DNA of 42,124 nt from a virus, in IMG/VR virus record IMGVR_UViG_3300029181_000007. The stretch is one strand, 5' to 3'. The notes under the pieces were generated by a model that saw only the letters and a list, made by a program, of their open reading frames with translations, was not told the DNA's origin and searched no databases. Both the position numbers and the translations under genes were made by a program. Of this stretch, positions 3,369 to 39,595 are shown piece after piece; the first letter of the stretch is position 1, and every line of letters begins with the position of its first letter.

Positions 3369-3649
3369 AACTCAAATCTACTACTTACTACTGGTTGGCT
3401 GTCGTTTTTGGCGGCGTTGGAATGGGCGCAGCTATGGGTGCAGAGGGCACCGCGCAGACCACCGGATATATCTCCAGCACACTGTTTGCGGTGTCGCTGG
3501 CGCTGATTTTGGCCGCTGTTCTGCTGGCTCGTCTGGGCTTTGCCGCAGAGGACAGGGAGAGAGCCGCAAAGCGGCGCAAGTACGGCAAGATCAACCGTGC
3601 CCACGCCCGCAACCCGGAATATCCGGAGAATCAGGAGCGTGGGGCATGA
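3365..3649 (+). CDS. Membrane protein (two TM helices, basic tail)
   Basis: ATGA coupling to the upstream gene. YYWLAVVFGGVGMGAAMGA and LFAVSLALILAAVLLARLGF are hydrophobic. Confidence 0.55.
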   Translation: MKLKSTTYYWLAVVFGGVGMGAAMGAEGTAQTTGYISSTLFAVSLALILAAVLLARLGFAAEDRERAAKRRKYGKINRAHARNPEYPENQERGA

Positions 3650-4801: not shown

Positions 4802-5441
4802 AACGAGCATTTATGAGGCATCTCGATCTGTCCCGCCGGAAGCGCAGAAGCGGATCAGCGGCGGGCGGCTGAACGGCATGACCGACATCAACCCCATGTG
4901 GCGCGTCAAGAAGCTGACCGAGCTTTTCGGCCCGGCGGGCATCGGTTGGAAGTTCGACCCGCCAGTATTCGAGGAAAAACCCGGCGTCAACGGCGAGGTG
5001 ATGGTGCATTGCTTCACCTGCCTGTACATCCGGCAGGACGATGGGACCGCCTGGAGCGCTCCTATTCCCGGCGTTGGCGGGTCCATGCTGATCTCCACCG
5101 AGAAAAGCGGCCAGCGCACAGACGATGAAGCGTATAAAAAAGCCTACACGGACGCCCAGGGCGTGGCATGTAAGGCGCTTGGTATTGGTGCAGACGTGTA
5201 TTGGAACGCAGATGCAACCAAGTACAGCGCCCCTGCAGCAAGGCCTGCACAGAAGCCCTCCGCCCCTCCTGTCTGTGCCTGCTGTGGGAAGCAGATCACT
5301 GGCATCAAGTCCAAGGACGGAAAATCTGCGCTGACCGCCGAACAGGCAGCCGACCGCAGTTTCAAAAAATACGGGCGTGTCCTCTGCATGGAGTGCGCCA
5401 GAAAGCAGCCGAAAGAAGATGGAGGATTGACGCATGCTTAA
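4794..5441 (+). CDS. Rad52/Sak-like single-strand annealing protein with C-terminal zinc ribbon
   Basis: KKLTELFGPAGIGWKF and DDEAYKKAYTDAQGVACKALGIGADVYW fit the Rad52-type SSAP signature. C-terminal CACCGK...CMEC. Lies directly upstream of ssb. Confidence 0.65.
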   Translation: MDKTSIYEASRSVPPEAQKRISGGRLNGMTDINPMWRVKKLTELFGPAGIGWKFDPPVFEEKPGVNGEVMVHCFTCLYIRQDDGTAWSAPIPGVGGSMLISTEKSGQRTDDEAYKKAYTDAQGVACKALGIGADVYWNADATKYSAPAARPAQKPSAPPVCACCGKQITGIKSKDGKSALTAEQAADRSFKKYGRVLCMECARKQPKEDGGLTHA

Positions 5442-5907
5442 CGTTGTAGCCATCATGGGCCGCCTTGTGGCGGACCCGGAACTCAAGACCACCACGCAGG
5501 GCACCAGCGTGTGCCGTTTCCGTATCGCCTGCGACCGCAGCTATGTTCGTCAGGGCGAGGAACGCAAGGCCGATTTTATTGACATTGCCGCATGGCGGCA
5601 GACTGCCGAGTTCGTCTGCAAGTATTTCCAGAAGGGCAGCCTGATCGCCATCGACGGCAGCATCCAGACCCGCCAGTATCAGGACAAGAACGGCAACAAC
5701 CGTACCGTTTTCGAGGTCGTGGCCAACAATGTGAGCTTTGCAGGCTCCAAGGCCGCAGACAAGCCCGCTGTGCAGAGTTTCGACCAGCAGACGCAAAGTT
5801 ACACTCGGCAGGCAAACGCCTCTCACAGCGCACCGCAGGCCGGTTACGCGCAGGGCGAGCCGGACGACTTTGACGAGATCACCGACGACGGCGACCTGCC
5901 GTTCTGA
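5434..5907 (+). CDS. ssb: Single-stranded DNA-binding protein
   Basis: OB-fold pattern MLNVVAIMGRLVADPELKTT..G..VCRFRIA...FIDIAAWR..AE. Acidic tail DDGDLPF. Confidence 0.9.
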   Translation: MLNVVAIMGRLVADPELKTTTQGTSVCRFRIACDRSYVRQGEERKADFIDIAAWRQTAEFVCKYFQKGSLIAIDGSIQTRQYQDKNGNNRTVFEVVANNVSFAGSKAADKPAVQSFDQQTQSYTRQANASHSAPQAGYAQGEPDDFDEITDDGDLPF

Positions 5908-5965: not shown

Positions 5966-6751
5966 TTGAAAGAGGAAGAACAGAAAAGCATAGTCATTTA
6001 CAAGTCATGGAAAAAGCCATTGCGGAAATTGTCTCTGGAGCAAAAAGGCAGGATTTTTGATGCGCTGCTTGATTTCCCCGATCCACCGAATTTTGAGGAC
6101 GACCAGAAGCTCGAAATGGCGTGGGATTTTATGTCCGAGGCTGTGGAATCAAATTCTAAAAAATGGAACGAAAAACGAGAAAAGAGAGCTGCAGCAGGGC
6201 GTAAAGGTGCAGAAGTTACAAACGGCAAGCGTCAGCAAAACGCGGCAAATCCGGCAAATGCCGACTTTGACGAGCAAAAACAGCAAAACGCGGCAAATCC
6301 GGCTGTATCTGTAAATGGTAATGGTAATGTAAATGGTAATGGTAATGTAAATGGTAATGGTATATCCCCTAACGGGGATATATATAATAGCGCCGCCCCC
6401 GCCGCCGTTGACGTAGAACTTTCCAAGATCGTCCAGCATTATCAGCAGGCCGTTGGGGACTTCCCACGCTCTGCGCTGGACAAGCTGCAGAAGTGGAGGC
6501 AGGAGTACAGCACAGAGATGATCCTGCTGGCGATTGACAAGGCTACAGAAGCCGGAAAACGCTCGTGGAACTACATCAACGGCATATTGTCCGGCTGGAA
6601 ACGGGACGGCCTGCGCACACCGGGAGACGTGGAAGCCAACGAACAAAGCCGACAAGCCAGACCGAGAGGCAAGCAGCCAACCGAGACCGTAGACGACCAG
6701 CTTGCACGGGTGCTGGCGAAGATGGACAGAGAAAGAGGGTTTGAGACATGA
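5966..6751 (+). CDS. DnaD-like replication initiation / replisome organizer protein
   Basis: TTG start 9 nt after AGGAGG. C-terminal MILLAIDKATEAGKRSWNYINGILSGWKRDGLRT is the DnaD/DnaB_2 pattern. Low-complexity N/G/Q linker. Confidence 0.7.
   Translation: MKEEEQKSIVIYKSWKKPLRKLSLEQKGRIFDALLDFPDPPNFEDDQKLEMAWDFMSEAVESNSKKWNEKREKRAAAGRKGAEVTNGKRQQNAANPANADFDEQKQQNAANPAVSVNGNGNVNGNGNVNGNGISPNGDIYNSAAPAAVDVELSKIVQHYQQAVGDFPRSALDKLQKWRQEYSTEMILLAIDKATEAGKRSWNYINGILSGWKRDGLRTPGDVEANEQSRQARPRGKQPTETVDDQLARVLAKMDRERGFET
6311..6362 (+). repeat. In-frame 18-bp tandem repeat (gtaaatggtaatggtaat, about 3 copies) encoding VNGNGN
   Basis: Read directly. It lies in the linker of the DnaD-like protein. A 23-bp direct repeat occurs nearby (6233-6255 and 6281-6303). 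Confidence 0.9.
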
Positions 6752-7649: not shown

Positions 7650-7827
7650 ACCCTGCAAAGACTGCCCCGACCGGCACCCGATCTGTCACGACAGCTGCCC
7701 GAAGTACGCCGAGTACAAGCGTCAGCTGAAAGCGCAGCGCATCTACACCAACGGTAACCACGCGGCAGAGCGCATCAACCGCAACGATTTCAACAAAGAG
7801 GGATGGATGGGAGGAAGAAAACGGTGA
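7636..7827 (+). CDS. Small Cys-rich (zinc-binding?) protein
   Basis: Internal ATG at 7636. MVKLEPCKDCPDRHPICHDSCPKY. Confidence 0.45.
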   Translation: MVKLEPCKDCPDRHPICHDSCPKYAEYKRQLKAQRIYTNGNHAAERINRNDFNKEGWMGGRKR

Positions 7828-8444
7828 AAGTGCTGATTGCTTGTGAGGAATCGCAAGAAGTGTGCAAAGCGTTTCGTGCAAAAGGCCACGAAGCCTACTC
7901 CTGTGATATTCAGGAGCCGTCCGGCGGGCATCCTGAGTGGCATATTCTTGGTGATGCGCTCAAGGCCATTAAGGGGGGGAAAATCGTTACGATGGACGGC
8001 GTGGCGCATGAAGTCGGAAAGTGGGATTTGCTCATTGCACACCCGCCTTGCACACACCTAGCTGTTTCTGGTGCGCGGTGGTTCACGGAGGGGAAAAAAC
8101 CACTCAGCTTACGCTATGAAGCTGCTGCATTCTTTATGAAATTTATTGAAGCGGATGTCCCGCATATAGCGGTTGAAAATCCTGTGTGCGTGATGTCTAC
8201 GCTATACCGAAAGCCGGATCAGATTATCAATCCTTGGCAGTTTGGACACCCGGAGCAAAAGAAAACTTGCCTGTGGATTAAAAATCTTCCTATCCTTGAG
8301 GAAACTGACAACGTGTACGACTACATGACGACGTTGCCACCAAAATTGCGAGAAAAGAATCATTGGATGGGACGCGGCCACTCAAAAGAACGCAGCAAAA
8401 CTTTTCCTGGCATTGCAAAAGCAATGGCTGAACAGTGGGGGTGA
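7824..8444 (+). CDS. Compact DNA cytosine-C5 methyltransferase-like protein
   Basis: GTGA-coupled GTG start. AHPPCTHLAVSG is like motif IV (PC) and IAVENP is like motif VI (ENV). At about 206 aa there is no room for a canonical target-recognition domain. Confidence 0.5.
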   Translation: MKVLIACEESQEVCKAFRAKGHEAYSCDIQEPSGGHPEWHILGDALKAIKGGKIVTMDGVAHEVGKWDLLIAHPPCTHLAVSGARWFTEGKKPLSLRYEAAAFFMKFIEADVPHIAVENPVCVMSTLYRKPDQIINPWQFGHPEQKKTCLWIKNLPILEETDNVYDYMTTLPPKLREKNHWMGRGHSKERSKTFPGIAKAMAEQWG

Positions 8445-9115: not shown

Positions 9116-9501
9116 CCGACATTGAAAAATCAATTGCCAAGCTCCAGAGGTGCTTTCCGGGAAGTTATATTACTGACCGGAACGAGCTTATTGTCCATCC
9201 GAGGACAAACCAGTATATTATTCTGGAAAACATCGGAACGGAAGATGCCATCAAGGCCAAAGTGCTGGAGTGGCTTTCACGGGCGGCATTTAAAACCGAA
9301 CCATATTCACAGAAGTGGAGAAATCGAAAGTTTCACAAATATATGAGGGACGGCATCAATGCTTTTCTGGATACCGATTTCTCCGAAGATGATATGGAAC
9401 TGATCTACACCTACATGGGGCTTGAATGCGACCGTTGGCTGACACTCATGTTTATCGATCACGACATGAGCATCGAGTGGCTGAAGGAGCACGTATCATG
9501 A
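9112..9501 (+). CDS. Hypothetical protein
   Basis: ATGA coupling at both ends. 129 aa. Confidence 0.5.
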   Translation: MTDIEKSIAKLQRCFPGSYITDRNELIVHPRTNQYIILENIGTEDAIKAKVLEWLSRAAFKTEPYSQKWRNRKFHKYMRDGINAFLDTDFSEDDMELIYTYMGLECDRWLTLMFIDHDMSIEWLKEHVS

Positions 9502-9872
9502 AGCTGATCCTCTACGGCGACCCGCACACCAAGAAAAATTCTGCACGCATTCTCCGCACACGCTCCGGGACTCCATTCGTGGCCCCTAGCAAGGCTTACG
9601 TGGATTATGAGACGGACTGCCTGCGGCAAATCAACAGGCCGCGCAGCCCCATCTCCGCCCGCGTGAACGTGCGGTGCGTGTACTACATGAAGACTGCCCG
9701 TCGGGTCGATCTGGCAAACCTCATCGAGGCGACCACGGACATCCTGGTAAAAGCCCGGGTGCTGGAAGATGACAACTGCTGCATCGTCGCCGCCCACGAT
9801 GGCAGCCGGGTGGATTACGACAAGCAAAAGCCCAGAGTGGAGATCTGGATTGAAGAAATGGAGGACACATGA
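9498..9872 (+). CDS. rusA: RusA-family Holliday junction resolvase
   Basis: MKLILYGDPHTKKNSARI...DLANLIEATTDILVKARVLEDDNCCIV...PRVEIWIEE fits the RusA layout (D..N spacing, DD motif). Confidence 0.7.
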   Translation: MKLILYGDPHTKKNSARILRTRSGTPFVAPSKAYVDYETDCLRQINRPRSPISARVNVRCVYYMKTARRVDLANLIEATTDILVKARVLEDDNCCIVAAHDGSRVDYDKQKPRVEIWIEEMEDT

Positions 9873-10261
9873 ACCAAGTGTTTTTGGTAATTGGCTCAAC
9901 ACTTTGCTACGTCGGCGGGTTCGGCATAATGATTTGTCTTTTGGGCGTACTAACCGAACTGTGTATCGAAATCTGGGACAGTAATTTTAGACAGATTTGC
10001 GTTCGATTCCAAATCGCGCCGGGCGATGTTTCATACTTTGCCCAGAGTAAAAAAGACATTGAAGCAGCACTTGAGAAACAACGCATTCGGTGGCCGAACA
10101 CGGACGATGCATCTTTCGGGTGGTGGAACTGCCCAAGATGCAGCGCGTCGAACCGATACGTCAGCGAAAGCAAATCGGTTGCATATTGCCGCTGCTGCGG
10201 GCAAGCTGTCGATATGGATTACTACAGGAGGCATGCCAATGATTCGCAGATGGACACCTGA
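9869..10261 (+). CDS. Membrane-anchored zinc-ribbon protein
   Basis: N-terminal TM segment VFLVIGSTLCYVGGFGIMICLLGVL. CPRC...CRCC motif. Confidence 0.5.
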   Translation: MNQVFLVIGSTLCYVGGFGIMICLLGVLTELCIEIWDSNFRQICVRFQIAPGDVSYFAQSKKDIEAALEKQRIRWPNTDDASFGWWNCPRCSASNRYVSESKSVAYCRCCGQAVDMDYYRRHANDSQMDT

Positions 10262-10736
10262 CACCGACACGCAAAAGCCGGGAGAGACAACCGATGAGCA
10301 GAAGATGCGGGCGTGGTTTGAGCGCCTGCCGAAGATGCGGGCACTGATCTGCCAGCAGCAGGAGCACATTGCAAGCCTGCGGAATGCCGCCACCACGACC
10401 ACGTCAGGCACGTCCGGCGCGCCGGGGCGCTCCGGAACCAGCGACAAGGTAGGTCGGAACAGTGACGCCGCCATGGATGCCGAGCAGCATCTGCACGAGC
10501 TGAAATGCCAGTATGCCGAGATGCAGAAGAAAGCCATTGAAGTGGCCTACATGCTCCACGCCGATCCTGCATCCATCCGCCGCAGTAAGTGCATCATCCT
10601 GTGCTATGTTGAAGGCAGGCGGCACGCCGATATCGCGGCAGAAGTCGGCTATTCCAAGCCGTCTCAGGTTTCACGCGCAATTTCGGAAGGCCTGAGCCAG
10701 CTGACAGAGATCGCGAACGAGCTGAATCTTAGTTGA
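10239..10736 (+). CDS. Late-gene transcriptional activator candidate (sigma-70 region-4-like HTH, DUF1492/ArpU/RinA-type position)
   Basis: ATG 7 nt after AGGAGG. C-terminal CIILCYVEGRRHADIAAEVGYSKPSQVSRAISEGLSQL. Last gene before the terminase region. Confidence 0.6.
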   Translation: MIRRWTPDTDTQKPGETTDEQKMRAWFERLPKMRALICQQQEHIASLRNAATTTTSGTSGAPGRSGTSDKVGRNSDAAMDAEQHLHELKCQYAEMQKKAIEVAYMLHADPASIRRSKCIILCYVEGRRHADIAAEVGYSKPSQVSRAISEGLSQLTEIANELNLS

Positions 10737-10789
10737 ACCTGTACATTTTGCACAATGTCAGAGGGCTTTGTTTTTACACGCTCTGGGAT

Positions 10790-10818
10790 TTACTTGTTAT
10801 CGGCATCTGTGCTATTGT
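10790..10818 (+). promoter_or_regulatory. Putative promoter TTACTT-17-TGcTATTGT
   Basis: -35 at 10790-10795, a 17-nt spacer, and an extended -10 (TG at 10810-10811, TATTGT at 10813-10818). It lies upstream of the structured RNA locus. Confidence 0.35.
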
Positions 10819-10947
10819 GGTACCATCGGCAAAGCCGAAAAGGCAAACCGATGCACGCAGCCTCCGAAACGTGTCCCTTCTTAGCATTTTCCTTTTCTGT
10901 TTGCAGGTGCTGGGCTTTGCTCTCTTCACGTTTCGCGCTGCTTCTAT

Positions 10948-11021
10948 GCGATGCACTGACACAACGGCAGCCTGCCGCTCGTGAGAGACAGGAGGCGGTT
11001 CGATTCCGTCGTATCGCACCA
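10948..11021 (+). ncRNA. tRNA-sized, CCA-ending tRNA-like element without a decodable anticodon arm
   Basis: 7-bp acceptor (gcgatgc/gtatcgc). T arm ggcgg-ttcgatt-ccgtc. Encoded ACCA. A 3-bp D-like stem with GG in its loop. The anticodon position holds a 22-nt hairpin cctg-ccg-ctc-GTGA-gag-a-cagg with a GNRA loop. Confidence 0.5.
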
Positions 11022-11136
11022 TATGGCGCATGGACTAGACAACTCGCAAGGCCGCACGTGCAACCTCCCGTGCCAAGAAAAGGCCTTAGAATCCTTGCCA
11101 AGGTGTAGCTTTCCTGACAGGATGTGCGCCAATCAA

Positions 11137-11166
11137 CAGCCCCGGCGGCGAACCGGAGCTGTTTTT
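11137..11166 (+). terminator. Rho-independent terminator
   Basis: cagccccgg / ccggagctg stem (one C.A mismatch), 7-nt loop, then TTTTT. Confidence 0.6.
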
Positions 11167-11170
11167 ATAT

Positions 11171-11240
11171 GGCCGCCTGAGCGCAGTTTAGAGCGCGGCG
11201 CGTGTGTGTAGACACGGCTGGTTCGATTCCAAGGGCGGCT
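11171..11240 (+). ncRNA. Degenerate tRNA-like element (70 nt)
   Basis: 7-bp acceptor ggccgcc/ggcggct and D arm gcgc-agtttaga-gcgc. A GGTTCGATTCC T loop sits on only a 3-bp T stem. The anticodon-position stem cgtgt/acacg closes a 6-nt loop gtgtag, and no variable region remains. Confidence 0.4.
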
Positions 11241-11245
11241 TTTAT

Positions 11246-11318
11246 ACTCCGGTAGCTCAAGTGGTAGAGCAGCGGTCTCCAAAACCGCATGTTGCAGGTT
11301 CGAGCCCTGCCGGGAGTG
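11246..11318 (+). tRNA. trnW: tRNA-Trp (anticodon CCA)
   Basis: Full cloverleaf: ta-gctc-aagtggta-gagc, anticodon arm gcggt-CTCCAAA-accgc, and T arm gcagg-ttcgagc-cctgc. The acceptor has one G.G mismatch. No CCA is encoded. Confidence 0.85.
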
Positions 11319-11440
11319 CTTGCGTGCCCTATGAGGGGGCCGCGCAATAGCGGGGCATCTGGCCGCGAAAGTTCCAGATGCAGCAGTGCCTACCGTTTGA
11401 CGCATGTCCAACGAACTGAATGCACGGGTGCTGCTTATAT

Positions 11441-11576
11441 GCCGTCATAGCTCAACTGGAAGAGCGCCGCCCATTTAAGGCGGGACAACGTTGGTGACAC
11501 CACGGGAACATCACTGCACAGCCAACCACTGCGCACATCCATTCCGTGGGTGCTGGTTCAAATCCAGCTGGCGGCA
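11441..11576 (+). ncRNA. tRNA-like gene with a 68-nt insertion in the variable-arm position (anticodon loop CATTTAA)
   Basis: Acceptor gccgtca/tggcggc. D arm gctc-aactggaa-gagc. Anticodon arm ccgcc-catttaa-ggcgg (A at position 33, UUU at 34-36). Nt 11484-11551 are inserted before a perfect T arm gctgg-ttcaaat-ccagc. Confidence 0.5.
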
Positions 11577-11590
11577 CATTCGATATTTTG

Positions 11591-11620
11591 ACCGTTCGGA
11601 TTTTCCGGGCGGTTTTTCTT
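11591..11620 (+). terminator. Rho-independent terminator
   Basis: accgttcgga-ttt-tccgggcggt forms a 10-bp stem (two G.U pairs), followed by TTTTTCTTTT. Confidence 0.6.
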
Positions 11621-11647
11621 TTGCATGAGTTTAGAGAGGTGGTGGCG

Positions 11648-12115
11648 GTGAGCGCAAAGCGGCTGACAGACAGACAGAAAAAGAAGATCATCGCGGATTA
11701 TATCCAGCTGCAAAATTACACCCGCACCGCAAAGCTGAACGACGTTGCAGAAAGCACTGTGCGCAAGATCGTGAAAGATAATCCAAAGTGCGCGGATTTG
11801 TGCGCCTTAAAAAAAGAGCAGAACACGCAGGACATGCTTTCCTACTTAGGCAGCAAGTGCGGGGAAGCACAGAATCTTCTCGGGCTGTACCTTCAGGCGA
11901 TGGCAGACCGTAACAAAATCGCGGAAGCAACGCTGCCGCAGCTGTCCACGGCGTTTGGCACCATCGTGGACAAGTTTGCTATGCTGGGAGACCAGAGCGG
12001 CATAGAAGCCCCGGACGATGGCCTGCTTGAGGCTCTGAGCGCTGCCGCAGACATCAGCCCGCCGGATGACGTGGAGATGCTGCCAGAGGAAGAGGACGAC
12101 AATGCGGAAAAGTAA
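11648..12115 (+). CDS. terS: Terminase small subunit (putative)
   Basis: GTG start 8 nt after GAGAGG. N-terminal HTH AKLNDVAESTVRKIV. Acidic C-terminus. Overlaps the terL start. The longer ORF-track start (11546) would overlap the tRNA-like element. Confidence 0.6.
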   Translation: MSAKRLTDRQKKKIIADYIQLQNYTRTAKLNDVAESTVRKIVKDNPKCADLCALKKEQNTQDMLSYLGSKCGEAQNLLGLYLQAMADRNKIAEATLPQLSTAFGTIVDKFAMLGDQSGIEAPDDGLLEALSAAADISPPDDVEMLPEEEDDNAEK

Positions 12116-13349
12116 CGGATTTCGTTGGAAAGCCCTCAGCCAGCGGCAAAAGCAGGTCCTGAGCTGGTGGACACCGCAGAGCGCATACAGCGGCTACAAC
12201 GGCATCATTGCCGATGGAGCTATCCGCTCGGGCAAGACCTTTGCCATGAGCTTTTCGTTCGTCCAGTGGGCCATGACCTGCTACAGCGGCCAGCAGTTTG
12301 CCATGTGCGGCAAGACCATTGCCAGCTTCCGGCGCAACGTGCTGGGGACACTCAAGCAGCAGCTTGCAGCCCGGGGCTACAGCGTCAAGGAGCATCGGGC
12401 AGAAAACTGCATGACCGTCAGCAAGGGTGGCAGAACAAACGAGTTTTACTTTTTCGGCGGTAAGGACGAGAGCAGCCAAGACCTAATCCAGGGCATCACG
12501 CTGGCTGGAGCATTCTTTGACGAGGTGGCCTTGATGCCGCAGAGCTTTGTCAATCAGGCCACTGCCCGCTGCTCCGTCACCGGGTCAAAATTCTGGTTCA
12601 ACTGCAACCCGGGCAGCCCACAGCATTGGTTTTATCTCGAGTGGGTGCGGAAATGCCGTTCCCGCAAGATGATGTACCTCCACTTTACGATGGACGACAA
12701 CCTGTCGCTCTCCGAGGACATCAAGGACAGATACCGCAGCCAGTACAGCGGAGTTTTCTACCAGCGCTACATTCTGGGCCTGTGGACGGTGGCAGAGGGC
12801 CTTGTATATGACATGTTCGACCCCAAAAAACACGTCATTGACGTGCTGCCCGAGCTGTCCCCGAAGAGCGCCTATGTGGCGTGCGACTTCGGCACCCAGA
12901 ACGCAACGGTGTTCCTGCTGCTCCAAAAACAGGCCGATGCAGACTGCTGGATCGTCACCCGGGAGTACTACTACAGCGGCCGCGAACAGAAGCGGCAAAA
13001 GACCGTGGGCGAGTACGTCACAGACCTCAAGGCGTGGCTGAATGGCCTCAAGCCGGAGAGGATCATTGTGGACCCCTCTGCCCTGCCACTGATCACTGAG
13101 CTGCGCAAGAACGGCTTTACCCAGACCCCGGCAAACAACGACGTTCTGAGCGGAATTCTGGACGTACAGACCATGCTGCAGACCGGGCGGTTGAAGGTCT
13201 ACAAGGGTTGCAAGCACACGCTGGAAGAGTTCGGCGTGTACGCTTGGGATCCAGATAAAGACGACACCGTGCTGAAGGTCAACGACCACTGCATGGACGC
13301 TATCCGCTACTTCGTGCGCACAAAGCGCCTTGTGAAACTGAGGGATTGA
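12102..13349 (+). CDS. terL: Terminase large subunit (PBSX/Terminase_3-like)
   Basis: Walker A GAIRSGKTF. LAGAFFDEVALMP (Walker B-like). A C-terminal nuclease region with D residues. Lies immediately upstream of the portal gene. Confidence 0.9.
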   Translation: MRKSNGFRWKALSQRQKQVLSWWTPQSAYSGYNGIIADGAIRSGKTFAMSFSFVQWAMTCYSGQQFAMCGKTIASFRRNVLGTLKQQLAARGYSVKEHRAENCMTVSKGGRTNEFYFFGGKDESSQDLIQGITLAGAFFDEVALMPQSFVNQATARCSVTGSKFWFNCNPGSPQHWFYLEWVRKCRSRKMMYLHFTMDDNLSLSEDIKDRYRSQYSGVFYQRYILGLWTVAEGLVYDMFDPKKHVIDVLPELSPKSAYVACDFGTQNATVFLLLQKQADADCWIVTREYYYSGREQKRQKTVGEYVTDLKAWLNGLKPERIIVDPSALPLITELRKNGFTQTPANNDVLSGILDVQTMLQTGRLKVYKGCKHTLEEFGVYAWDPDKDDTVLKVNDHCMDAIRYFVRTKRLVKLRD

Positions 13350-14755
13350 TTTTGAGCATTTTGAGCACTGTATACACATTCCAGACCTTTCAGCAGGCGC
13401 AAGCCGCCGGGGAACAGCCTGATTTCATCCGGCGGTTCGTGCAGCAGCACTGCAGTTCCGGACCGTACAAGATGGCGCTGGACGCCGACCTGTACGACGC
13501 CCAGAAAAACCCGGGGGCTGAACGCTTCGCGCAGGCTTACGCTTTGATGCTGAAACGCCTGTCCAAAAACACAAAGCAGGATGTCCTGCACCCCGATATG
13601 GTCAAGAGCAATCTTTTCCGGCGGCTCAACAAGCAGAGAGCCACATACTCCCTCGGCAACGGCGTGGTCTTTGCGGACGATGGCGTGGACAAGAACAGGC
13701 TGGGGCAGAACTTTGACGAGCAGATCCAGAAGGCCGGATATTTCGCCCTGATCCACGGCGAGAGCTTCGGATTCTGGAACAACGACCATCTGGTGGTTTT
13801 CAAGCTGACCGAGTTTGCCCCCCTATACGATGAAAAGACAGGCCTTTTGCAGGCAGGTGTGCGCTTCTGGCGGCTGAACCCTGACACGGATATGCACTAT
13901 ATCCTGTACGAGCTGGACGGCTTTACCGAGTACACGGAAAGCAAAATTGGCAGCATCATGCAGGAGACAGCCCCGAAGCAGGCATACAAGAGCGTGACCG
14001 TCACCACACCCGGCGGCGGGCTGGAAAGCGTGGAGGGCGAAAACTACAGTTCCTTGCCCATTGTGCCTCTGTGGGGCTCAGACCTGCACCAGAGCACCCT
14101 TGTGGGGCTGAAAGCCTACATCGACAACACCGATCTGGTGACGTCCGGCTTCTGCAGCGACCTGCATGATTGCACAGAGATTTATTGGCTGTGCGAAAAC
14201 TTCAACGGCATGACCGATGATGAGCTGCAGGAGTTCCTAGTCAAGCTGAATCTGTACCACATTGCAGGCGCAGACACCAGCGAGGGCGGCAAGATCACCC
14301 CCTACACCACCGAGATTCCTGTGACGGCCCGGCAAACCCTGTTGGAGCTGCTCCACGCCCGGGTCTATGAGGACTTCGGCGGCCTGGACGTGCATTGCGT
14401 CAGCGCAAACAGCACCAACGACCATTTGGATGCGGCCTATGAGCCCATGAACCAGAACGCAGACGACTTCGAGGCACAGATCAAGCCTTTTGTTCGTCAA
14501 ATCTGTGCGCTGGCTGGCTTTGGCAGCGCAACGCCGACGTTCAACCGGAACCGGATTGTGAACACCGCCGAGCAGGTCAGCACAGTAATCTCCGAGGCGG
14601 CGATCATTGGGCAGGACATGGCCATTGACCTACTGCCAAACCTGACCCCGGAGCAAAAGGAAAAGGCCAGGGCCTCCCTGATGGCGGAAAGCGCAGCACG
14701 GGAGACCGTGGGCGAGGAGGAAGACACCGATGAAAAAAAACAGCAAAATTTATGA
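13346..14755 (+). CDS. Portal protein (SPP1 gp6-like)
   Basis: 469 aa, coupled to the terL stop (TTG/TGA overlap; alternative TTG at 13352). Acidic C-terminal tail. Position between terL and the MuF-like gene. Confidence 0.85.
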   Translation: MILSILSTVYTFQTFQQAQAAGEQPDFIRRFVQQHCSSGPYKMALDADLYDAQKNPGAERFAQAYALMLKRLSKNTKQDVLHPDMVKSNLFRRLNKQRATYSLGNGVVFADDGVDKNRLGQNFDEQIQKAGYFALIHGESFGFWNNDHLVVFKLTEFAPLYDEKTGLLQAGVRFWRLNPDTDMHYILYELDGFTEYTESKIGSIMQETAPKQAYKSVTVTTPGGGLESVEGENYSSLPIVPLWGSDLHQSTLVGLKAYIDNTDLVTSGFCSDLHDCTEIYWLCENFNGMTDDELQEFLVKLNLYHIAGADTSEGGKITPYTTEIPVTARQTLLELLHARVYEDFGGLDVHCVSANSTNDHLDAAYEPMNQNADDFEAQIKPFVRQICALAGFGSATPTFNRNRIVNTAEQVSTVISEAAIIGQDMAIDLLPNLTPEQKEKARASLMAESAARETVGEEEDTDEKKQQNL

Positions 14756-17840: not shown

Positions 17841-17914
17841 GCCGTTTTCGCTCAATGGTAGAGCTGCTGATTTGTAACCAGCGGACGCGGGTTCGATTCC
17901 TGCAGACGGCACCA
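17841..17914 (+). tRNA. trnT: tRNA-Thr (anticodon UGU), CCA encoded
   Basis: Acceptor gccgttt/agacggc. D arm gctc-aatggta-gagc. Anticodon arm gctga-TTTGTAA-ccagc. T arm gcggg-ttcgatt-cctgc. Ends ACCA. Confidence 0.85.
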
Positions 17915-21933: not shown

Positions 21934-24699
21934 TTGAGCGCCACCCTCGGGCTGGACGACAGCGCCTACCGGCAAGGCGTGGAAGAGGCAAAGTCTCAGA
22001 CTAGGGACGCCGTCTCCACCATGATGAAAGATTATAATCGGCTGTACAGCGAGGTCATTCACCTTACGGCAGCCTACCAGAAATCACGGAGAGAGACCGG
22101 GGAAGCCTCCAAAGAAACTAAGGAATTTGCCCAGAAGCTGAAAGAAGCTCAGGCCCAACTCAATACCACGGCACAGGGACTGAAAACTGCGGAAGGGTAC
22201 ATGAACAGCTTTGGGGACGCCACATCGGGGTCCAGCAAGTCTCTGGCCGGTGCTATTGCACAAGGCACGATCATGGCGGGCCTTTTCTCAAAACTCAGCT
22301 CTGCCGCTCTTGCCGCTGCGAAAAGTTTCATTCAGTCTGGCATCGACTACAACGCCCAGATCGAGAAATACACCACCGGCTTTACCAATATGCTGGGCAG
22401 CGCGGAAGCTGCACAACAAGCCATGGCAAAGATTCAGGAGGACGCCGCCCGCACCCCGTTCAACGTCGAAGCTCTGACGCAGGCAAACCAGCTGCTTATC
22501 AGCGCGGGTGAAAACGCCGGGTATTCCGAAAAGGTCATTCTGGCACTTGGCAACGCAGTCAATGCGGCAGGCGGCGGCAATGCGGAACTGTCCCGCATGG
22601 CGCAGAACCTGCAGCAGATCGCCAACGTTGGCAAGGCTGCAAGCATTGACATCAAGCAGTTTGCTTATGCAGGCATCAACATCTATCAGGTTTTGGCCGA
22701 CTATACCGGTAAATCGGTGCAGGAAGTCCAGAACATGACCATCAGTTATGACTTGCTGTCTCAGGCTCTTATCGCAGCCAGCGAAGAGGGCGGGCGCTAC
22801 TACGGTGCTATGGAGACACAGAGCCAGACCATGAATGGGCGCATGTCTACCCTGCAGGACAATGTCAAGCAGCTGGCGGGATTGCTGACCGGCGATTTAT
22901 CCAGCGGCGTCGGCGTTGTAATCGGCAATCTGAACGACATGCTCGTCGCAGCACAGGAAGCCTACAAAACCGACGGGTGGATTGGTCTTGCGGGCGCAAT
23001 TACCGGGTTGAGCGGCCCAATTTCGTCCGTCAAATCCTGGTTTGAGGGCTTTGCTTCCAGTGCCTCCACCTGGCTGGACAAGCTGAGCTATAAGCTCAAT
23101 CGCTTTCTGGGGAAAGCGGCCACAGCGGATTACGACACATACGAGGAGTATGCAGACGCAAACCTCCGCCAAAGCAACCGCGACCGCTTACGGCAGCAAG
23201 CTCTTGCAGGCGTTGGCGTCAGCAATAAGAGCTGGTCCCAGCGGCAGGCGGAGTTGGCGGCAGCCAATGGCAACGGGGGCAGCTCCATCGTCACCACAGG
23301 CAGCGGCTCTTCCGGCAGAAAAAAATCCGGCTCCAAGTCCACCACCGAAACGGTCATTTCATCCATCTCCAGCACGGCTACCACCACCGCGCAGAATGCG
23401 CTGGGTACCGTGACCACCAGCATCCAGACCCTTGCCGAAAAGGTCAAGGACAGCTCCGGCAAGATCAAAGACCGCATCACCGAGACCACCACCACGACCG
23501 GCAAGGAGATGGTGAACGGTGTTGCCACGACCTTTAAGCAGGTCGAGACCAAAGTCAACGGCACGGTCACAAAGGTCACAAAGACCTATGACGACATGTC
23601 AAAAACGCTGCTGGGCACCTTTACCAACGTCTCGGAAACCACCTTTGACGGCATCACCACAAAGGTGCAACAGGCGGTGGAAAAGTACGCGGACGGCAGC
23701 GAGCATATCAAGAAAACCGTCACAGAGACCGGCCAGCGCGTCGGCGAGAACGGCGCGGAGACCTACGAGAAGATCATCACCTACATCGACGGCGTTCAAG
23801 ACAAGGTGAACGAGACCTCTACTCTTATCGACAAGAGCGTAAAGGGCACCCAGAGCCGCATTGACCAGCAGCTGAGTGAGGCTTCCGGCCAGCTGGATAA
23901 GGGCATTTTCGGGCTGGTAAAAAGCGCCTTTAGTGACGCCAAAAATGGCGACTGGGGCGGTCTCGCTCTAGATTTTGTCAATCTAATCTGGGGCGAAGTG
24001 TCGCAGGGCCAGCGCGAAACAATTTCCAAGTGGTTTGACAACGCCCTTGCCGCCGTGAACGAATCTTACTATGGCGGTGGTCTGAAAAGTGCATTTACCG
24101 CGGTGGAAAGCCTGTTTAAAGGCGGCATTGTGCCGGGCGTAAACAACGCCACGACGGCAGTTGATTCCTTCTCTAAGGTCGTGAGCGGGCTTGCGAGCTC
24201 TGGCGGCGTTGGCGGCGCACTTGGCAGCGTTGTGCAGGGTTTTTCTGGTATGGCTGGCGGCATCACGTCTGCGCTTGGCACTGTGGTGTCGTTCATCTCT
24301 GCAAACCCAGTCCTTGGCGTCATTCTCGGCGTTGGCGCTGTGGGTGCTGTAGCTGGCGGCATCGGGCTTTCGCTGTGGGCAAAAAACAAAAAGAGCAAAG
24401 ACCCGGTCAATAATTACAAGAGCCCGTTTGACGATGTGGGCGTTTACGACAGCCTGAGCGAGTTTTCTACGCGGTCTGCGATGCAGTACCGCGTGATCGG
24501 ACAGAGCAGCCACGCAGACAAGCAGACCAGCATTCTGGAGCGCATCGAGGAGCTTCTGGACGAGCATCTGCCTGCCATTGGCACCGGTCAGGTGGTCATG
24601 GATTCCGGCGAGCTGGTGGGCGTTATTTCGCCCAGGATGGCACAAAATGTTGACGCGCGCATCGGTGTGACCGTGACGCGGAAAGCGAGGGGTGTGTAA
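21934..24699 (+). CDS. Tail tape measure protein
   Basis: 921 aa, Ala/Gly/Ser-rich and helical. Hydrophobic Gly-zipper segment GVILGVGAVGAVAGGIGLSLWA. The start is uncertain: TTG at 21934, or CTG at 21919 which lies 9 nt after AGGAGG. Confidence 0.9.
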   Translation: MSATLGLDDSAYRQGVEEAKSQTRDAVSTMMKDYNRLYSEVIHLTAAYQKSRRETGEASKETKEFAQKLKEAQAQLNTTAQGLKTAEGYMNSFGDATSGSSKSLAGAIAQGTIMAGLFSKLSSAALAAAKSFIQSGIDYNAQIEKYTTGFTNMLGSAEAAQQAMAKIQEDAARTPFNVEALTQANQLLISAGENAGYSEKVILALGNAVNAAGGGNAELSRMAQNLQQIANVGKAASIDIKQFAYAGINIYQVLADYTGKSVQEVQNMTISYDLLSQALIAASEEGGRYYGAMETQSQTMNGRMSTLQDNVKQLAGLLTGDLSSGVGVVIGNLNDMLVAAQEAYKTDGWIGLAGAITGLSGPISSVKSWFEGFASSASTWLDKLSYKLNRFLGKAATADYDTYEEYADANLRQSNRDRLRQQALAGVGVSNKSWSQRQAELAAANGNGGSSIVTTGSGSSGRKKSGSKSTTETVISSISSTATTTAQNALGTVTTSIQTLAEKVKDSSGKIKDRITETTTTTGKEMVNGVATTFKQVETKVNGTVTKVTKTYDDMSKTLLGTFTNVSETTFDGITTKVQQAVEKYADGSEHIKKTVTETGQRVGENGAETYEKIITYIDGVQDKVNETSTLIDKSVKGTQSRIDQQLSEASGQLDKGIFGLVKSAFSDAKNGDWGGLALDFVNLIWGEVSQGQRETISKWFDNALAAVNESYYGGGLKSAFTAVESLFKGGIVPGVNNATTAVDSFSKVVSGLASSGGVGGALGSVVQGFSGMAGGITSALGTVVSFISANPVLGVILGVGAVGAVAGGIGLSLWAKNKKSKDPVNNYKSPFDDVGVYDSLSEFSTRSAMQYRVIGQSSHADKQTSILERIEELLDEHLPAIGTGQVVMDSGELVGVISPRMAQNVDARIGVTVTRKARGV

Positions 24700-37712: not shown

Positions 37713-38846
37713 TCAGTACTTCATCTTCTGCATTTCCCGCAACAAATATGTCGGGTCGTTGTGTGACACGTACTTGTTTGCCGTTGTGGAGAAATTCTTG
37801 TGACCGAGGATTGCCTGCACAGCGGTTTTTTCCAGACCGCACTCCACCATTTTACTGCTGGCCGTATGACGCAGAGTATGCGGGTGCACCCCCTCTATAT
37901 GGCATTCCTGCATCAGGGCACGGAATTTTGTAGCCACATTGCGTTTGTCCAGCTTTGTGCCGGCCTTGGATGGTATCAGCCATTCGCACCCGCTGTTCAG
38001 CATCCAAAAAGCTACCGTCTTGTAAATCGGTTCAAGAATCGGGATAATGCGGTTTTTGCCCGCCTCGGTCTTTTCGCCGCCCTGCATATAGTGCTCCTTC
38101 AGATGAACGTCCTCACAGCGCATAGAGAGCAGTTCATCAATGCGCATACCGGTGTACAGCAAAACCATGGCGATTTGAGCCGTCTGCCCGAATTTTGGGT
38201 CATTCTGGTAGATGCTGATCTGCTCTATCTCGGCTGCAGTCAGAGTGCGCTCCGCTTTTCCTGTAGCCGCCGGGAGCTGCAGCAGCATGGCGTAATTTTT
38301 GTTTATGATGTCCTGCGCCATTGCCCACTCGCAGATCTGGCTGAAAAGCGTGCGCTGCTTTTCGCAGGAGCTGCGGGAGAGCCCTTTTTCCACCATTGCG
38401 TCAATGACCTGTTGATAATCTGCCGCTTTTAAGTCCCGCAATTGTCGGTCGTATAGCGGCGCAGCCTTTGCATAGGCCAGCTCGTACCCCTTTTGCATGT
38501 CCGTGCTAAGCTTGTCAAATTTGGGCTGCGCTTTCCATTGGACATAGGCATCCGCAAAGGTGCATTTCAGACGCGCTGCGGGGGTGTTCTGGGCGTTGTA
38601 AGCGTCCAGCGCTTGTACTGCTTCGCCTGCCGTTTCAAACGTGCCCAGAACATCTCTGCGGGCTGTGAGTGCAACATACGGTCTTGCCCGCGTCCCACTC
38701 AGTTTATACACGCTGCCGCTGCCCTTTGGACGGCGGCGCTTTTTTCTTTGCTGCGGGGCGGCTTCCGGCTGTTTCTTCCCGCACCACGGACAAAAAGAAG
38801 CGCCATCCGGGATCTCCTTCCGGCAACATGGTCTTATGCACTTCAT
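37713..38846 (-). CDS. int: Tyrosine site-specific integrase with N-terminal zinc ribbon
   Basis: CCRKEIPDGASFCPWCGK. Catalytic-region motifs TGMRIDELLSM (R), HTLRHT (H-x-x-R), AILGH and ANKYV (Y). Confidence 0.9.
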   Translation of the reverse strand: MKCIRPCCRKEIPDGASFCPWCGKKQPEAAPQQRKKRRRPKGSGSVYKLSGTRARPYVALTARRDVLGTFETAGEAVQALDAYNAQNTPAARLKCTFADAYVQWKAQPKFDKLSTDMQKGYELAYAKAAPLYDRQLRDLKAADYQQVIDAMVEKGLSRSSCEKQRTLFSQICEWAMAQDIINKNYAMLLQLPAATGKAERTLTAAEIEQISIYQNDPKFGQTAQIAMVLLYTGMRIDELLSMRCEDVHLKEHYMQGGEKTEAGKNRIIPILEPIYKTVAFWMLNSGCEWLIPSKAGTKLDKRNVATKFRALMQECHIEGVHPHTLRHTASSKMVECGLEKTAVQAILGHKNFSTTANKYVSHNDPTYLLREMQKMKY

Positions 38847-38849
38847 AGC

Positions 38850-39437
38850 TTACTCCTTTTTTCGCCCGATGTAACCCTGCGCGCCTTTTTCCGAAGCTTC
38901 ACGCCCGGCCTTGTAATTTACCTTCAAATCGTCTATTGGCGGCTGTGGGTCGTCCGGGCAGGGGTCTAATCCCATGTTCTGGGCAAAGTTGTATTGGTTG
39001 ATGATGATTCCGCACACGCTGACCCGGTTGTTGAGTGGGCAGTGCAGGTTGGCGGCTACCTCGGAAATCACAGCGGACGGGCTGCTGCCATGGTTGCCCT
39101 TCAGCACGAAAAGAAGCAGTCGTTTCGTCAGCGGTGGCAAGTTTACCACAAAGCGGCACAGCTTTGCGTCCAGCTCTGTGTCGGTCTTTCCGTCATCGGG
39201 TGTCGCGTACAGCTCCGGGTGGATCATCTCCATAAACACGGCGATGGGGGATGCCCCGCAGGCCGTACACCAATCCATGATCTCGTCGCTGTCCGGGCTG
39301 GTGCAGCCTTTTTCCCAGCTCTGCACCGTCCGCTCACCCTTTTCGATGCGTCTTGCGATCTCCACTTGGCTCAGGCCGGCAGATACCCGGGCCTTTGCAA
39401 GCGCTTTCCCGATCTGGGTTGCCGTAAAATAACTCAT
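38850..39437 (-). CDS. XRE-family HTH regulator (CI-like repressor candidate) upstream of int
   Basis: Internal ATG after GGGGGTGA. HTH AGLSQVEIARRIEKGERTVQSWEKG. 3-nt gap to the int start. Confidence 0.7.
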   Translation of the reverse strand: MSYFTATQIGKALAKARVSAGLSQVEIARRIEKGERTVQSWEKGCTSPDSDEIMDWCTACGASPIAVFMEMIHPELYATPDDGKTDTELDAKLCRFVVNLPPLTKRLLLFVLKGNHGSSPSAVISEVAANLHCPLNNRVSVCGIIINQYNFAQNMGLDPCPDDPQPPIDDLKVNYKAGREASEKGAQGYIGRKKE

Positions 39438-39475
39438 ACTTTCACCCCCGTAAAACCAACGTGTTTTTAACAGAA

Positions 39476-39502
39476 AATGGCGCAGATTTTTTCTGCGCCA
39501 TT
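39476..39502. promoter_or_regulatory. Perfect 11-bp inverted repeat aatggcgcaga-ttttt-tctgcgccatt
   Basis: Read directly. It lies between the repressor-like gene and the divergent promoter, so it could be an operator or a minus-strand terminator. Confidence 0.5.
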
Positions 39503-39510
39503 CGACAAAA

Positions 39511-39539
39511 AATATCCGTATTTTGTTTTCCAACGGCGC
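39511..39539 (+). promoter_or_regulatory. Putative promoter with extended -10 TGgTAGAAT
   Basis: TAGAAT at 39534-39539 with TG at 39531-39532. A weak -35-like TTGTTT lies upstream. Confidence 0.35.
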
Positions 39540-39595
39540 ATGGTAGAATTTGGAACATAAGACATAAATATGCACAAAAGAAAGGGGAAAACAAA

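Follow-up and report, generated by a model that had tools for sequence, protein, structure and literature searches.

Between the late regulator gene and the terminase genes of a human-gut temperate phage of Faecalibacterium type (IMG/VR virus record IMGVR_UViG_3300029181_000007; 42,124 nucleotides (nt), the whole of which we call the window), the interval 10737-11647 carries an array of conserved structured RNAs and no conserved coding sequence. In transcript order the array comprises a 5' leader (S1), a tRNA-like unit with an encoded CCA (E1), a four-helix RNA (S2), an intrinsic terminator (T1), a second tRNA-like unit (E2), a canonical tRNA-Trp, a series of three hairpins (S3), a tRNA with a large variable-region insert (E4) and a second terminator (T2), followed by terS. 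The architecture of E4, a tRNA with A at position 33 (A33) and a covarying pseudoknot in its variable region, and the S2 family both appear to be undescribed; neither the E4 domain nor S2 has a family in Rfam 15. We regard the structural claims as strong and the functional claims as weak. Our preferred reading, held tentatively and at less than even confidence, is that the interval is the untranslated leader of the late (packaging) operon, from which small RNAs are cut that act as mimics of, or substitutes for, tRNAs attacked by host defences.

E4, a tRNA with a pseudoknotted variable region

E4 (11441-11576, plus strand) matches the Rfam tRNA model at 47.8 bits, with 65 nt counted as inserted. 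Its core is canonical: U8, A14, G18 and G19 are in place, A15 is matched with U48, and the acceptor branch is 7/5. The anticodon loop reads CAUUUAA, with A33 at 11473 and the anticodon at 11474-11476. Pattern scans of IMG/VR and human-gut metagenomes, which supply the copy counts for E4 and S2 and give lower bounds, found at least 142 distinct E4 sequences in at least 271 copies. Among the matches listed, A33 is present in all 271 copies, always accompanied by 36-UAA-38; the loop is CAUUUAA in 255, GAGUUAA in 15 and AAUUUAA in one, and the anticodon stem CCGCC/GGCGG recurs in 259 of the 271. The CAUUUAA loop is Lys(UUU)-like and the GAGUUAA loop Asn(GUU)-like.

The initial annotation had recognised E4 as one of several tRNA-shaped elements, and we can add that its insert is a pseudoknotted domain. 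In the window, the variable region (11484-11551, 68 nt) contains helix P1 (11500-11507 with 11542-11549), helix P3 (11515-11521 with 11529-11535) and a pseudoknot between UGGU (11492-11495) and ACCA (11525-11528); the folding z-score of E4 is -3.3. Across homologues the variable region measures 53-87 nt and its arm exists in five unrelated versions, types A-E. All types share a 5' linker (G-N-C-A-A-C-N-N-U-G-R-U-G-A-Y-A-C), a covarying basal helix (CCAC/GUGG, CAUC/GAUG or CACG/CGUG, depending on type) and an apical hairpin with A-Y-C-A in its loop. The pseudoknot is UGGU/ACCA in types A, B and C and UGAU/AUCA in types D and E, with G-U variants as well, and all four pairs are kept in 140 of 141 sequences, the GC-to-AU switch included. 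We trimmed the alignment to segments that can be matched between types, which left 80 distinct rows. Of its cells, 99.2% pair, compared with no more than 52% for slid partners; ten pairs have changed on both sides, and every helix covaries. None of 500 shuffles reached the observed value on four of five measures, and one of 500 did so on the fifth. The apical stem of type A contains an A-C mismatch that several relatives have repaired to G-C or A-U.

Three other descriptions of the insert were rejected. A mobile insertion or intron would predict copies without it, of which there were none among 154 distinct homologues (the shortest parsed variable region is 53 nt), and is also contradicted by the conservation of the linker and loop motif across five unrelated arms. 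The tRNA-Val(TAC) with a 49-nt intron returned by ARAGORN with option -i takes no account of the conserved anticodon arm. For the pseudoknot, the alternative register GUUGG/CCAAC is broken by the linker variants GAUGG and ACUGG, in which UGRU/AYCA is kept.

Three E4-carrying relatives also have an ARAGORN-called tRNA with a CUA anticodon (labelled tRNA-Pyl), a possible amber suppressor, which adjoins a canonical tRNA-Lys and lies less than 2.5 kb from E4.

S2 and the other modules of the array

S2 (11024-11131, plus strand) has the closing stem UGGCGCAU/GUGCGCCA. The initial annotation had listed the 11025-11130 helix among several long-range pairings; it closes a separate RNA family with at least 133 distinct sequences in at least 371 copies, falling into 13 clusters and 107-150 nt long. 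Its ends are invariant (5' UGRCGCAUGG and 3' GGAUGUGCGYCA). In 53 diverse homologues, 99.3% of the cells of this helix, P1, are paired, with one covarying pair (AU 34, GC 9, GU 7). P2 (GG...CC), P3 and the inner P4 have been rebuilt from unrelated sequences among clusters, inner P4 occurring as AGG/CCU, GCGGG/CCCGC, GCGCGC/GCGCGC and GUGGG/CCCAC. Every one of the 13 cluster representatives contains exactly one CCUCC and one AAUCC, which in the window lie within AACCUCC in a hairpin loop (11062-11068) and GAAUCC (11089-11094). One cluster has its CCUCC within ACACCUCCUUUCU, which we take to resemble the 3' tail of 16S rRNA.

In all 13 S2 representatives, a tRNA-like unit ending in N-CC-R lies upstream, sometimes with a small hairpin between, and a hairpin with a U run, differing in sequence, lies downstream; we read the latter as an intrinsic terminator. 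Rfam searches of the window (E-values up to 10) and of 15 diverse relatives (at gathering thresholds) gave no match to S2. Two other roles for S2 sequences were set aside: a T-box-like pairing of the NCCA end of E1 with the invariant UGGN of S2 was rejected, as the discriminator cannot pair with N (both are A in the window), and a DNA-level inverted repeat formed by the S2 ends is less likely, as the G-U pairs of the stem work on plus-strand RNA only. Several S2-linked terminators (for example, in loci L194 and L375) read ...GCAUGGAAAC(G/A)UGC..., much as though the two invariant S2 ends (GCAUGG and GUGC) had been fused into a shortened S2; hairpin 4 of S3 also has UGACGCAUG.

The canonical tRNA-Trp that the initial annotation had identified is called by both ARAGORN and Rfam at 11246-11319 (plus strand, anticodon CCA; 60.1 bits with the Rfam tRNA model) and is present in 75 of 84 related loci. 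It is the sole ARAGORN call in 10737-11647 at default settings; relaxed settings gave inconsistent calls. The scans do not turn all four tRNA-shaped units into ordinary tRNAs with normal loops, and the other three, E1, E2 and E4, bear out the description of tRNA-shaped elements with abnormal anticodon regions, being conserved with compensatory changes. The elbow features of tRNA (acceptor stem, GTTCRANYC T loop and D-loop GG) are present in all three and supported by pair counts; the D-loop GG is found in nearly all E2 and E4 copies and is lost in the window E2 and in E4 types D and E. UAU precedes all four units. An N-CC-R tail is encoded on the units upstream of S2 and on none of E2, tRNA-Trp and E4.

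In E1 (10948-11021, plus strand), the acceptor stem has 7 bp and the D stem 3 bp, the T arm is normal (GGCGG-UUCGAUU-CCGUC), the discriminator is A and CCA is encoded; an extended hairpin (6-bp stem, enlarged loop) takes the place of the anticodon arm. E2 (11171-11241, plus strand) keeps a D arm and a UUCGAUU T loop, with an acceptor stem of 8 bp, a short middle hairpin and no variable loop; its T stem consists of three invariant pairs and a C-A mismatch. ARAGORN calls neither, and the best Rfam match of each is a sub-threshold one to tRNA-Sec (18.7 bits at 10947-11018 for E1 and 17.3 bits at 11171-11240 for E2; gathering score 47, E about 1-2). A canonical anticodon arm (5-bp stem, 7-nt loop, U33) is lacking in both, the loop being enlarged in E1 and 6, 9 or 3 nt long in E2.

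Pairing is maintained in each. E1 has 26 distinct homologues, in which 96.2% of cells are paired (no more than 52% with slid partners) and the CCUG/CAGG helix has two pairs with compensatory changes. Among 48 distinct E2 homologues, 93.8% of cells pair (97.7% in the acceptor stem), with slid controls at or below about 53%; GU, UG, GC and UA are all found at the first acceptor pair, and both GC and AU at one pair of the D stem. The middle arm of E2 comes in at least three unrelated versions on an otherwise fixed frame: 5-bp hairpins with loops of 6 or 3 nt and a 6-bp hairpin with a 9-nt loop. In the window copy the loop is 6 nt long and one of the two conserved D-loop Gs is gone. Covariation among homologous phage loci, which the initial annotation had proposed as a test, is thus found for E4, S3 and the S2 closing stem, and appears more weakly for E1 and E2.

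The E1 loop reads CUCAUGA or CUCAUAA in most relatives, like the anticodon loop of tRNA-Met(CAU), and CUCGUGA in the window; because of two private G-U changes, the window E1 has no exact match in IMG/VR. Relatives may carry other units in the E1 slot, 51-101 nt long and placed after the conserved S1 end GCUGCUUCUAU. These start with GCGA, end in CGC-N-CC and keep the T arm, and their interiors are unrelated yet again form hairpins. One unit in this slot (L231:3398-3468) matches the tRNA model at 39.7 bits with normal acceptor, D and T arms and has GCUCC-CCG-GGAGC as its anticodon arm (5-bp stem, 3-nt loop), a further non-decoding tRNA-like form. Six loci (L021, L030, L043, L054, L057 and L058; for example, L030:1965-2041) have a tRNA with the 8-nt anticodon loop CUAUUGAA, labelled 'tRNA-???(attg)' by ARAGORN; the loop is Gln(UUG)-like with an A inserted after U33, and the tRNA is followed by N-CC-A and an S2 RNA.

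S3 (11320-11435, plus strand) consists of hairpins at about 11321-11347, 11355-11381 and 11382-11435, with UUAUAU after the last. RNAalifold on 60 homologues gave 27 pairs in three helices, six of them with compensatory changes (pair states such as GC 27 / AU 24 and CG 35 / UA 24), and so upholds the helices previously drawn at 11356-11380 and 11381-11435. S1 (10820-10936, plus strand) has 46 distinct homologues, contains a CCUCC-bearing pyrimidine-rich stretch and ends in GCUGCUUCUAU just before E1. Its 5' hairpin at 10824-10853, also proposed initially, is part of the minimum-free-energy fold; it never varies where present and is swapped for a different hairpin in many relatives. A long S1 helix, CGAAACGUG/CACGUUUCG, shows no compensatory change among homologues and remains uncertain.

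Both intrinsic terminators named in the initial annotation were recovered by a pattern scan. T1 (11135-11168; 11144-11163 in the scan; plus strand) is a stem-loop followed by UUUUU, has a folding z-score of -2.6 and closes the S1-E1-S2 unit. T2 (11590-11624; 11590-11614 in the scan; plus strand) has an 11-bp stem and a U run, has a z-score of -4.0 and is kept in relatives that include locus L204, a Faecalibacterium prophage. Each shows the G+C-rich hairpin and U run of a rho-independent terminator, conserved after S2 and E4, respectively. The folding z-scores of the single RNAs are modest (-0.5 to -3.3), so the case against chance folding rests on comparison and not on energetics.

BLAST of the interval against relatives defined by terL revealed a mosaic. 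We took a census of 66 relatives with a terminase 97-99% identical and a complete upstream flank: S2 is present in 61, S3 in 58, E2 and tRNA-Trp in 57 each, any E1-class unit in 49, E4 in 33 and the window type of E1 in 30, and the full window set occurs in 15. The modules are gained and lost independently of one another. Extra tRNAs occur in some relatives: canonical tRNA-Met, tRNA-Thr or tRNA-Lys, or one whose loop has 8 nt.

The description of the interval as protein-free stands, with neither family support nor conservation for any open reading frame (ORF). Ten interval ORFs of 53-117 amino acids (aa) gave no significant PHROG or Pfam family, the single Pfam match being below cutoff. The longest open frames (81-124 aa) never retained 90% or more of their length in 46 distinct relatives colinear over at least 780 nt, where median coverage was about half. 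There is no conserved coding sequence in the interval, and ORFs that gene callers predict in this leader may be spurious. On the minus strand, a micro-ORF beginning MPRRDTFRRLR (10774-10900), opposite the CCUCC-rich part of S1, encodes 25-37 aa in nearly all copies. In relatives such as L006 and L018 it is preceded by a strong AAAGGAGGAAA; a 3-nt deletion has left the window copy without a Shine-Dalgarno sequence.

The phage itself is a temperate siphovirus with a complete genome of about 42 kb. Integrase (37713-38846) and repressor (38850-39575) genes lie on the minus strand, and the genome further encodes Ant (anti-repressor, 579-1382), SSB (5434-5907), a DnaD-like loader (5966-6751), a methyltransferase (7803-8444) and RusA (9426-9872). 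Immediately upstream of the array is an ArpU/sigma-like regulator (10026-10736; PHROG 36, E = 3e-7; weak Pfam Sigma70_r4 match), and downstream are terS (start 11648), terL (12066-13349), an SPP1-type portal gene (13346-14755) and a tape measure gene (21934-24699). Related terL genes occur in 549 IMG/VR contigs, of which the best 80 are 97-99% identical, and array modules are kept across hundreds of human-gut phage contigs.

The closest relative in a cellular genome is the prophage L204, in a Faecalibacterium metagenome-assembled genome (MAG), with a terL identity of 67%. E2 and E4 persist there in spite of this distance. Other Oscillospiraceae prophages, with terL about 47% identical, carry none of the array RNAs and provide no deeper covariation. 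L204 and a second locus, L205, lie on one contig of the MAG (CAKTGQ010000006.1, 15326-24603 and 54046-63323), so that a related prophage region is present in two copies about 39 kb apart, both with the same E2 and a type-C E4, which suggests either tandem prophages or an assembly duplication.

Two other RNAs were noted elsewhere in the window. FuFi-1 (Rfam RF02986; 69 bits, gathering score 59.6) occupies 5-227 on the minus strand, just upstream of the Ant gene. Within the structural-gene module, at 17841-17914 on the plus strand and distant from the main array, lies another canonical tRNA, tRNA-Thr(UGU); in relatives, tRNA-Thr is found either in that module or in the leader array.

Proposed function and alternatives

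The gap between T2 and the terS start is about 24-28 nt, which looks too short for another promoter. terS must then be transcribed through the array, and the whole interval, in a step beyond the initial annotation, must on this argument be the leader of the terS operon. The leader probably starts at a promoter-like site (10790-10818, plus strand; TTTACT-18 nt-TATTGT, in which TG precedes the second hexamer). This site, also part of the initial annotation, falls under the threshold of a sigma-70 scan (8/12 matches), and TTTACT-18 nt-TATnnT is kept in nine distinct relatives with diverged spacers (S0 alignment).

RNase P, RNase Z and CCA addition, which together mature tRNAs, act on tRNA shapes. 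In the mechanism we propose, the tRNA-shaped units would be handles for these activities and each RNA would be cut from the leader, with S2 left as a tRNA-linked trailer RNA ending at T1. The non-decoding tRNA-like RNAs would act as RNAs and not as adaptors. E4 would most likely be a nuclease-refractory stand-in for, or an uncleavable mimic of, tRNA-Lys or tRNA-Asn: the U33A change would remove the residue cut or needed by anticodon nucleases of the PrrC and colicin E5 types, and the pseudoknotted domain might add binding or stability. The CCUCC loop of S2 could pair with Shine-Dalgarno sequences or mimic the 3' tail of 16S rRNA. Through expression from the late leader, these RNAs would arrive at the peak of structural-protein synthesis and of the defences that late proteins trigger.

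The cleavage site of PrrC is 3' of U33 (PMC2610378). Colicin E5 requires Y33-G34-U35, and changing U33 to A or G abolishes cleavage (PMC1635277). A proposal for mycobacteriophages, drawn from combined observations, is that phage tRNAs with changed anticodon loops escape tRNA-targeting defences (PMC10264068). E4 fits this pattern, as it has an anticodon loop of a targeted type altered at the residue that the nucleases need, and the constancy of A33 in such loops points to a nuclease-refractory substitute or uncleavable mimic. A33 in the Lys/Asn-like loops is thus circumstantial support for a nuclease-decoy function. The Gln(UUG)-like tRNA of relatives, with its A after U33, and the Met-like E1 loop would be in line with such a reading. 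The initial annotation had raised tRNA decoys as one possibility, and the structural part of that idea is borne out by three conserved, non-canonical tRNA-shaped RNAs with compensatory changes.

Several observations weigh against this proposal. U33A should also impair decoding, so the version in which E4 replaces a lost tRNA may fail. The E4 discriminator is A or U equally often, which is odd for a charged tRNA. E4 is missing from half of the closest relatives and is to that extent dispensable. In locus L018 (E4 at 3377-3512), GUGAUGU replaces the 3' side of the internal loop and produces a perfect rod of about 22 bp, which seems hard to reconcile with a pseudoknot inside one molecule. Covariation in E1 and E2 is thin, with identities of 97% and 77%, respectively, and only two to three pairs changed on both sides, and the window copies of both have no recognisable anticodon mimic, which leaves the nuclease argument resting on E4 and on relatives. 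The two terminators, finally, could point to a purely regulatory leader. The L018 change itself looks templated.

A further reading, which we consider doubtful, is that the leader is an RNA-only counter-defence island of Faecalibacterium phages. E4 would then be a tRNA scaffold with an aptamer-like pseudoknotted domain and would inhibit anticodon nucleases specific for Lys/Asn as a substrate mimic that they cannot cleave. Mimicry of additional tRNA species or of acceptor ends would fall to the other tRNA-like units, and S2 would mimic the anti-Shine-Dalgarno tail of 16S rRNA or block ribosome-binding sites. If true, the island would be an RNA analogue of protein anti-defence genes, conceptually similar to RNA anti-CRISPRs.

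A purely cis-regulatory late leader, in which the terminators attenuate or are antiterminated so as to time terS and terL expression and the tRNA shapes are incidental or serve as punctuation, is the first of the alternatives and in our view unlikely. Two intrinsic terminators lie between the sole plausible promoter and terS, a terminator directly follows every S2, and the position is that of lambda PR'-tR' and of other antitermination-controlled leaders. The modules come and go, however, while terS and its ribosome-binding region remain unchanged, and a required element should not be optional. Inspection of the sequence around T1 found no alternative antiterminator pairing, and conservation of the E4 anticodon arm and the S2 ends in sequence as well as in structure suggests a factor acting in trans.

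We think it similarly improbable that E4, and perhaps E2 and E1, are unusual working tRNAs, E4 reading Lys or Asn codons in a nuclease-resistant form with its extra arm tolerated. E4 does reach the Rfam tRNA gathering score and keeps the tertiary-core residues and 36-UAA-38; in switching from UUU to GUU it would remain with the class IIb synthetases. Hairpin aptamers engineered into the variable arm of tRNAs leave them active (PMC7590224). Decoding by E4 is disfavoured by A33 in place of the near-universal U33 of the U-turn, by the variable discriminator and by a 16-nt single-stranded linker with a pseudoknotted domain of about 50 nt, which far exceeds known variable arms. Moreover, a canonical tRNA-Lys(UUU) accompanies E4 in 17 loci, so E4 is not simply the Lys tRNA of the phage. 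For E1 and E2, the lack of a 7-nt anticodon loop tells against decoding.

It is less probable still that the tRNA-like units are functionless, decaying pseudogenes or recombination scars whose shared T-loop microhomology aids shuffling. Mosaicism in the array is strong, with some junctions lying within the T loop (in L058 and L021, for example, E2 is truncated at GGUUCGAUUCC), and the window copies show some wear, with two G-U pairs in E1 and one D-loop G lost from E2. Decay is nonetheless difficult to square with pairing in 96%, 94% and 99% of cells of E1, E2 and E4, against about 53% at most in slid controls, or with stem changes that are overwhelmingly compensatory or wobble-compatible. The middle arm of E2 and the interiors of E1-slot units have been replaced by unrelated hairpins on fixed acceptor, D and T arms, and the same RNAs persist in the prophage with the more distant terL.

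A small protein, such as one from the minus-strand micro-ORF, is very improbable: most relatives have the ATG and a strong Shine-Dalgarno sequence, but the window lacks the latter, the C-terminal halves diverge by frameshift and replacement, changes in the 11 shared codons are mostly non-synonymous, and no interval ORF reaches a curated family score in Pfam or PHROGs. Scarcely credible, finally, is the single large ornate RNA of the GOLLD or ROOL type that the initial annotation had suggested; those RNAs occur near tRNAs and in prophages (PMC5737381) and the interval is long and helix-dense, but its Rfam matches, with E up to 10 in the window and at gathering threshold in 15 relatives, are limited to tRNA, T1 is an internal terminator and the modules are independently present or absent in the 66 relatives.

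Phage tRNA genes are usually explained by codon supply and, lately, by the replacement of tRNAs that host defences destroy. Here, widespread human-gut phages maintain tRNA-shaped RNAs that are expected to decode poorly or not at all, and the array we favour as a source of tRNA mimics or substitutes could be an RNA-based means for phages to protect or manipulate translation. If its RNAs mimic or inhibit tRNA-targeting defences, RNA-based anti-defence would extend beyond CRISPR mimics and these phages would offer natural designs for tRNAs with an extra domain. Regardless of function, the array defines at least two RNA families missing from Rfam, the E4-type tRNAs and S2.

Comparison with known systems

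Our searches of the literature on tRNA-like decoys, long variable arms in phage tRNAs and noncoding RNAs of Faecalibacterium prophages found no specific description of these RNAs, and the Rfam searches returned only tRNA and, elsewhere in the genome, FuFi-1. Like GOLLD, ROOL and FuFi-1 (Weinberg et al. 2017, PMC5737381), the array is associated with prophages and lies near tRNAs, and S2 recalls FuFi-1 in being a highly conserved motif with a 3' terminator. The array differs from all three in showing no sequence or structure match to them and in consisting of separate small RNAs.

Y RNA (YrlA) and tmRNA offer a likeness of another kind, as they also mimic the acceptor stem, T arm and elbow of tRNA and add a non-tRNA domain. 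In E4, by contrast, the acceptor stem is built from the two ends of the RNA and, with the anticodon arm intact, the extra domain grows from the variable region. ARAGORN with option -m found no tmRNA, Rfam gave no match to tmRNA or to Y RNA/YrlA in the array interval (E up to 10), and no Ro/Rsr or SmpB homologue was found among 30 genome ORFs scanned against PHROGs, ten of them also against Pfam.

Some small RNAs are released by tRNA processing, among them the 3' external transcribed spacer of Escherichia coli leuZ and the tRNA-miRNA units of MHV68, and the C4 RNA of P1 and P7 and the CI RNA of P4 are processed by RNase P. S2 likewise sits directly 3' of a tRNA-shaped unit and ends at a terminator, and tRNA maturation would set its 5' end. 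What sets S2 apart is its conserved four-helix fold, with ends that do not vary and a CCUCC motif, and its place after a unit that is itself non-decoding.

Irregular tRNAs, including those with an 8/4 acceptor branch (Mukai et al. 2017, PMC5389517), resemble the array in forming clusters with non-standard cloverleaves, some thought to be non-translational, and allo-tRNAs have been found, as the array RNAs have, in Clostridia and phages. The 8-bp acceptor stem and 3-4-bp T stem of E2 are compatible with an 8/4 branch, the fourth T pair being non-standard; E2 lacks, however, both the long variable arm and the normal 7-nt anticodon loop of allo-tRNAs. E4 departs from them in its 7/5 branch and its far larger, pseudoknotted variable region. 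Their contexts differ too: allo-tRNAs are known from toxin-antitoxin loci of soil bacteria, and the array from a phage late leader.

A further close comparison is with phage tRNA clusters, including tRNAs with altered anticodon loops that escape tRNA-targeting defences, as in the mycobacteriophage proposal (PMC10264068) and in the T5 tRNA-Tyr that counters a retron (bioRxiv 10.1101/2023.03.15.532788). The array is likewise a phage tRNA cluster, in this case adjoining the packaging genes, and shares with those clusters a genuine tRNA-Trp and anticodon-loop changes in tRNA types that nucleases attack (Lys and Asn). It differs in that three of its four units are not recognisable as decoding tRNAs, the change falls on U33 itself and E4 adds a pseudoknotted domain of 65-87 nt.

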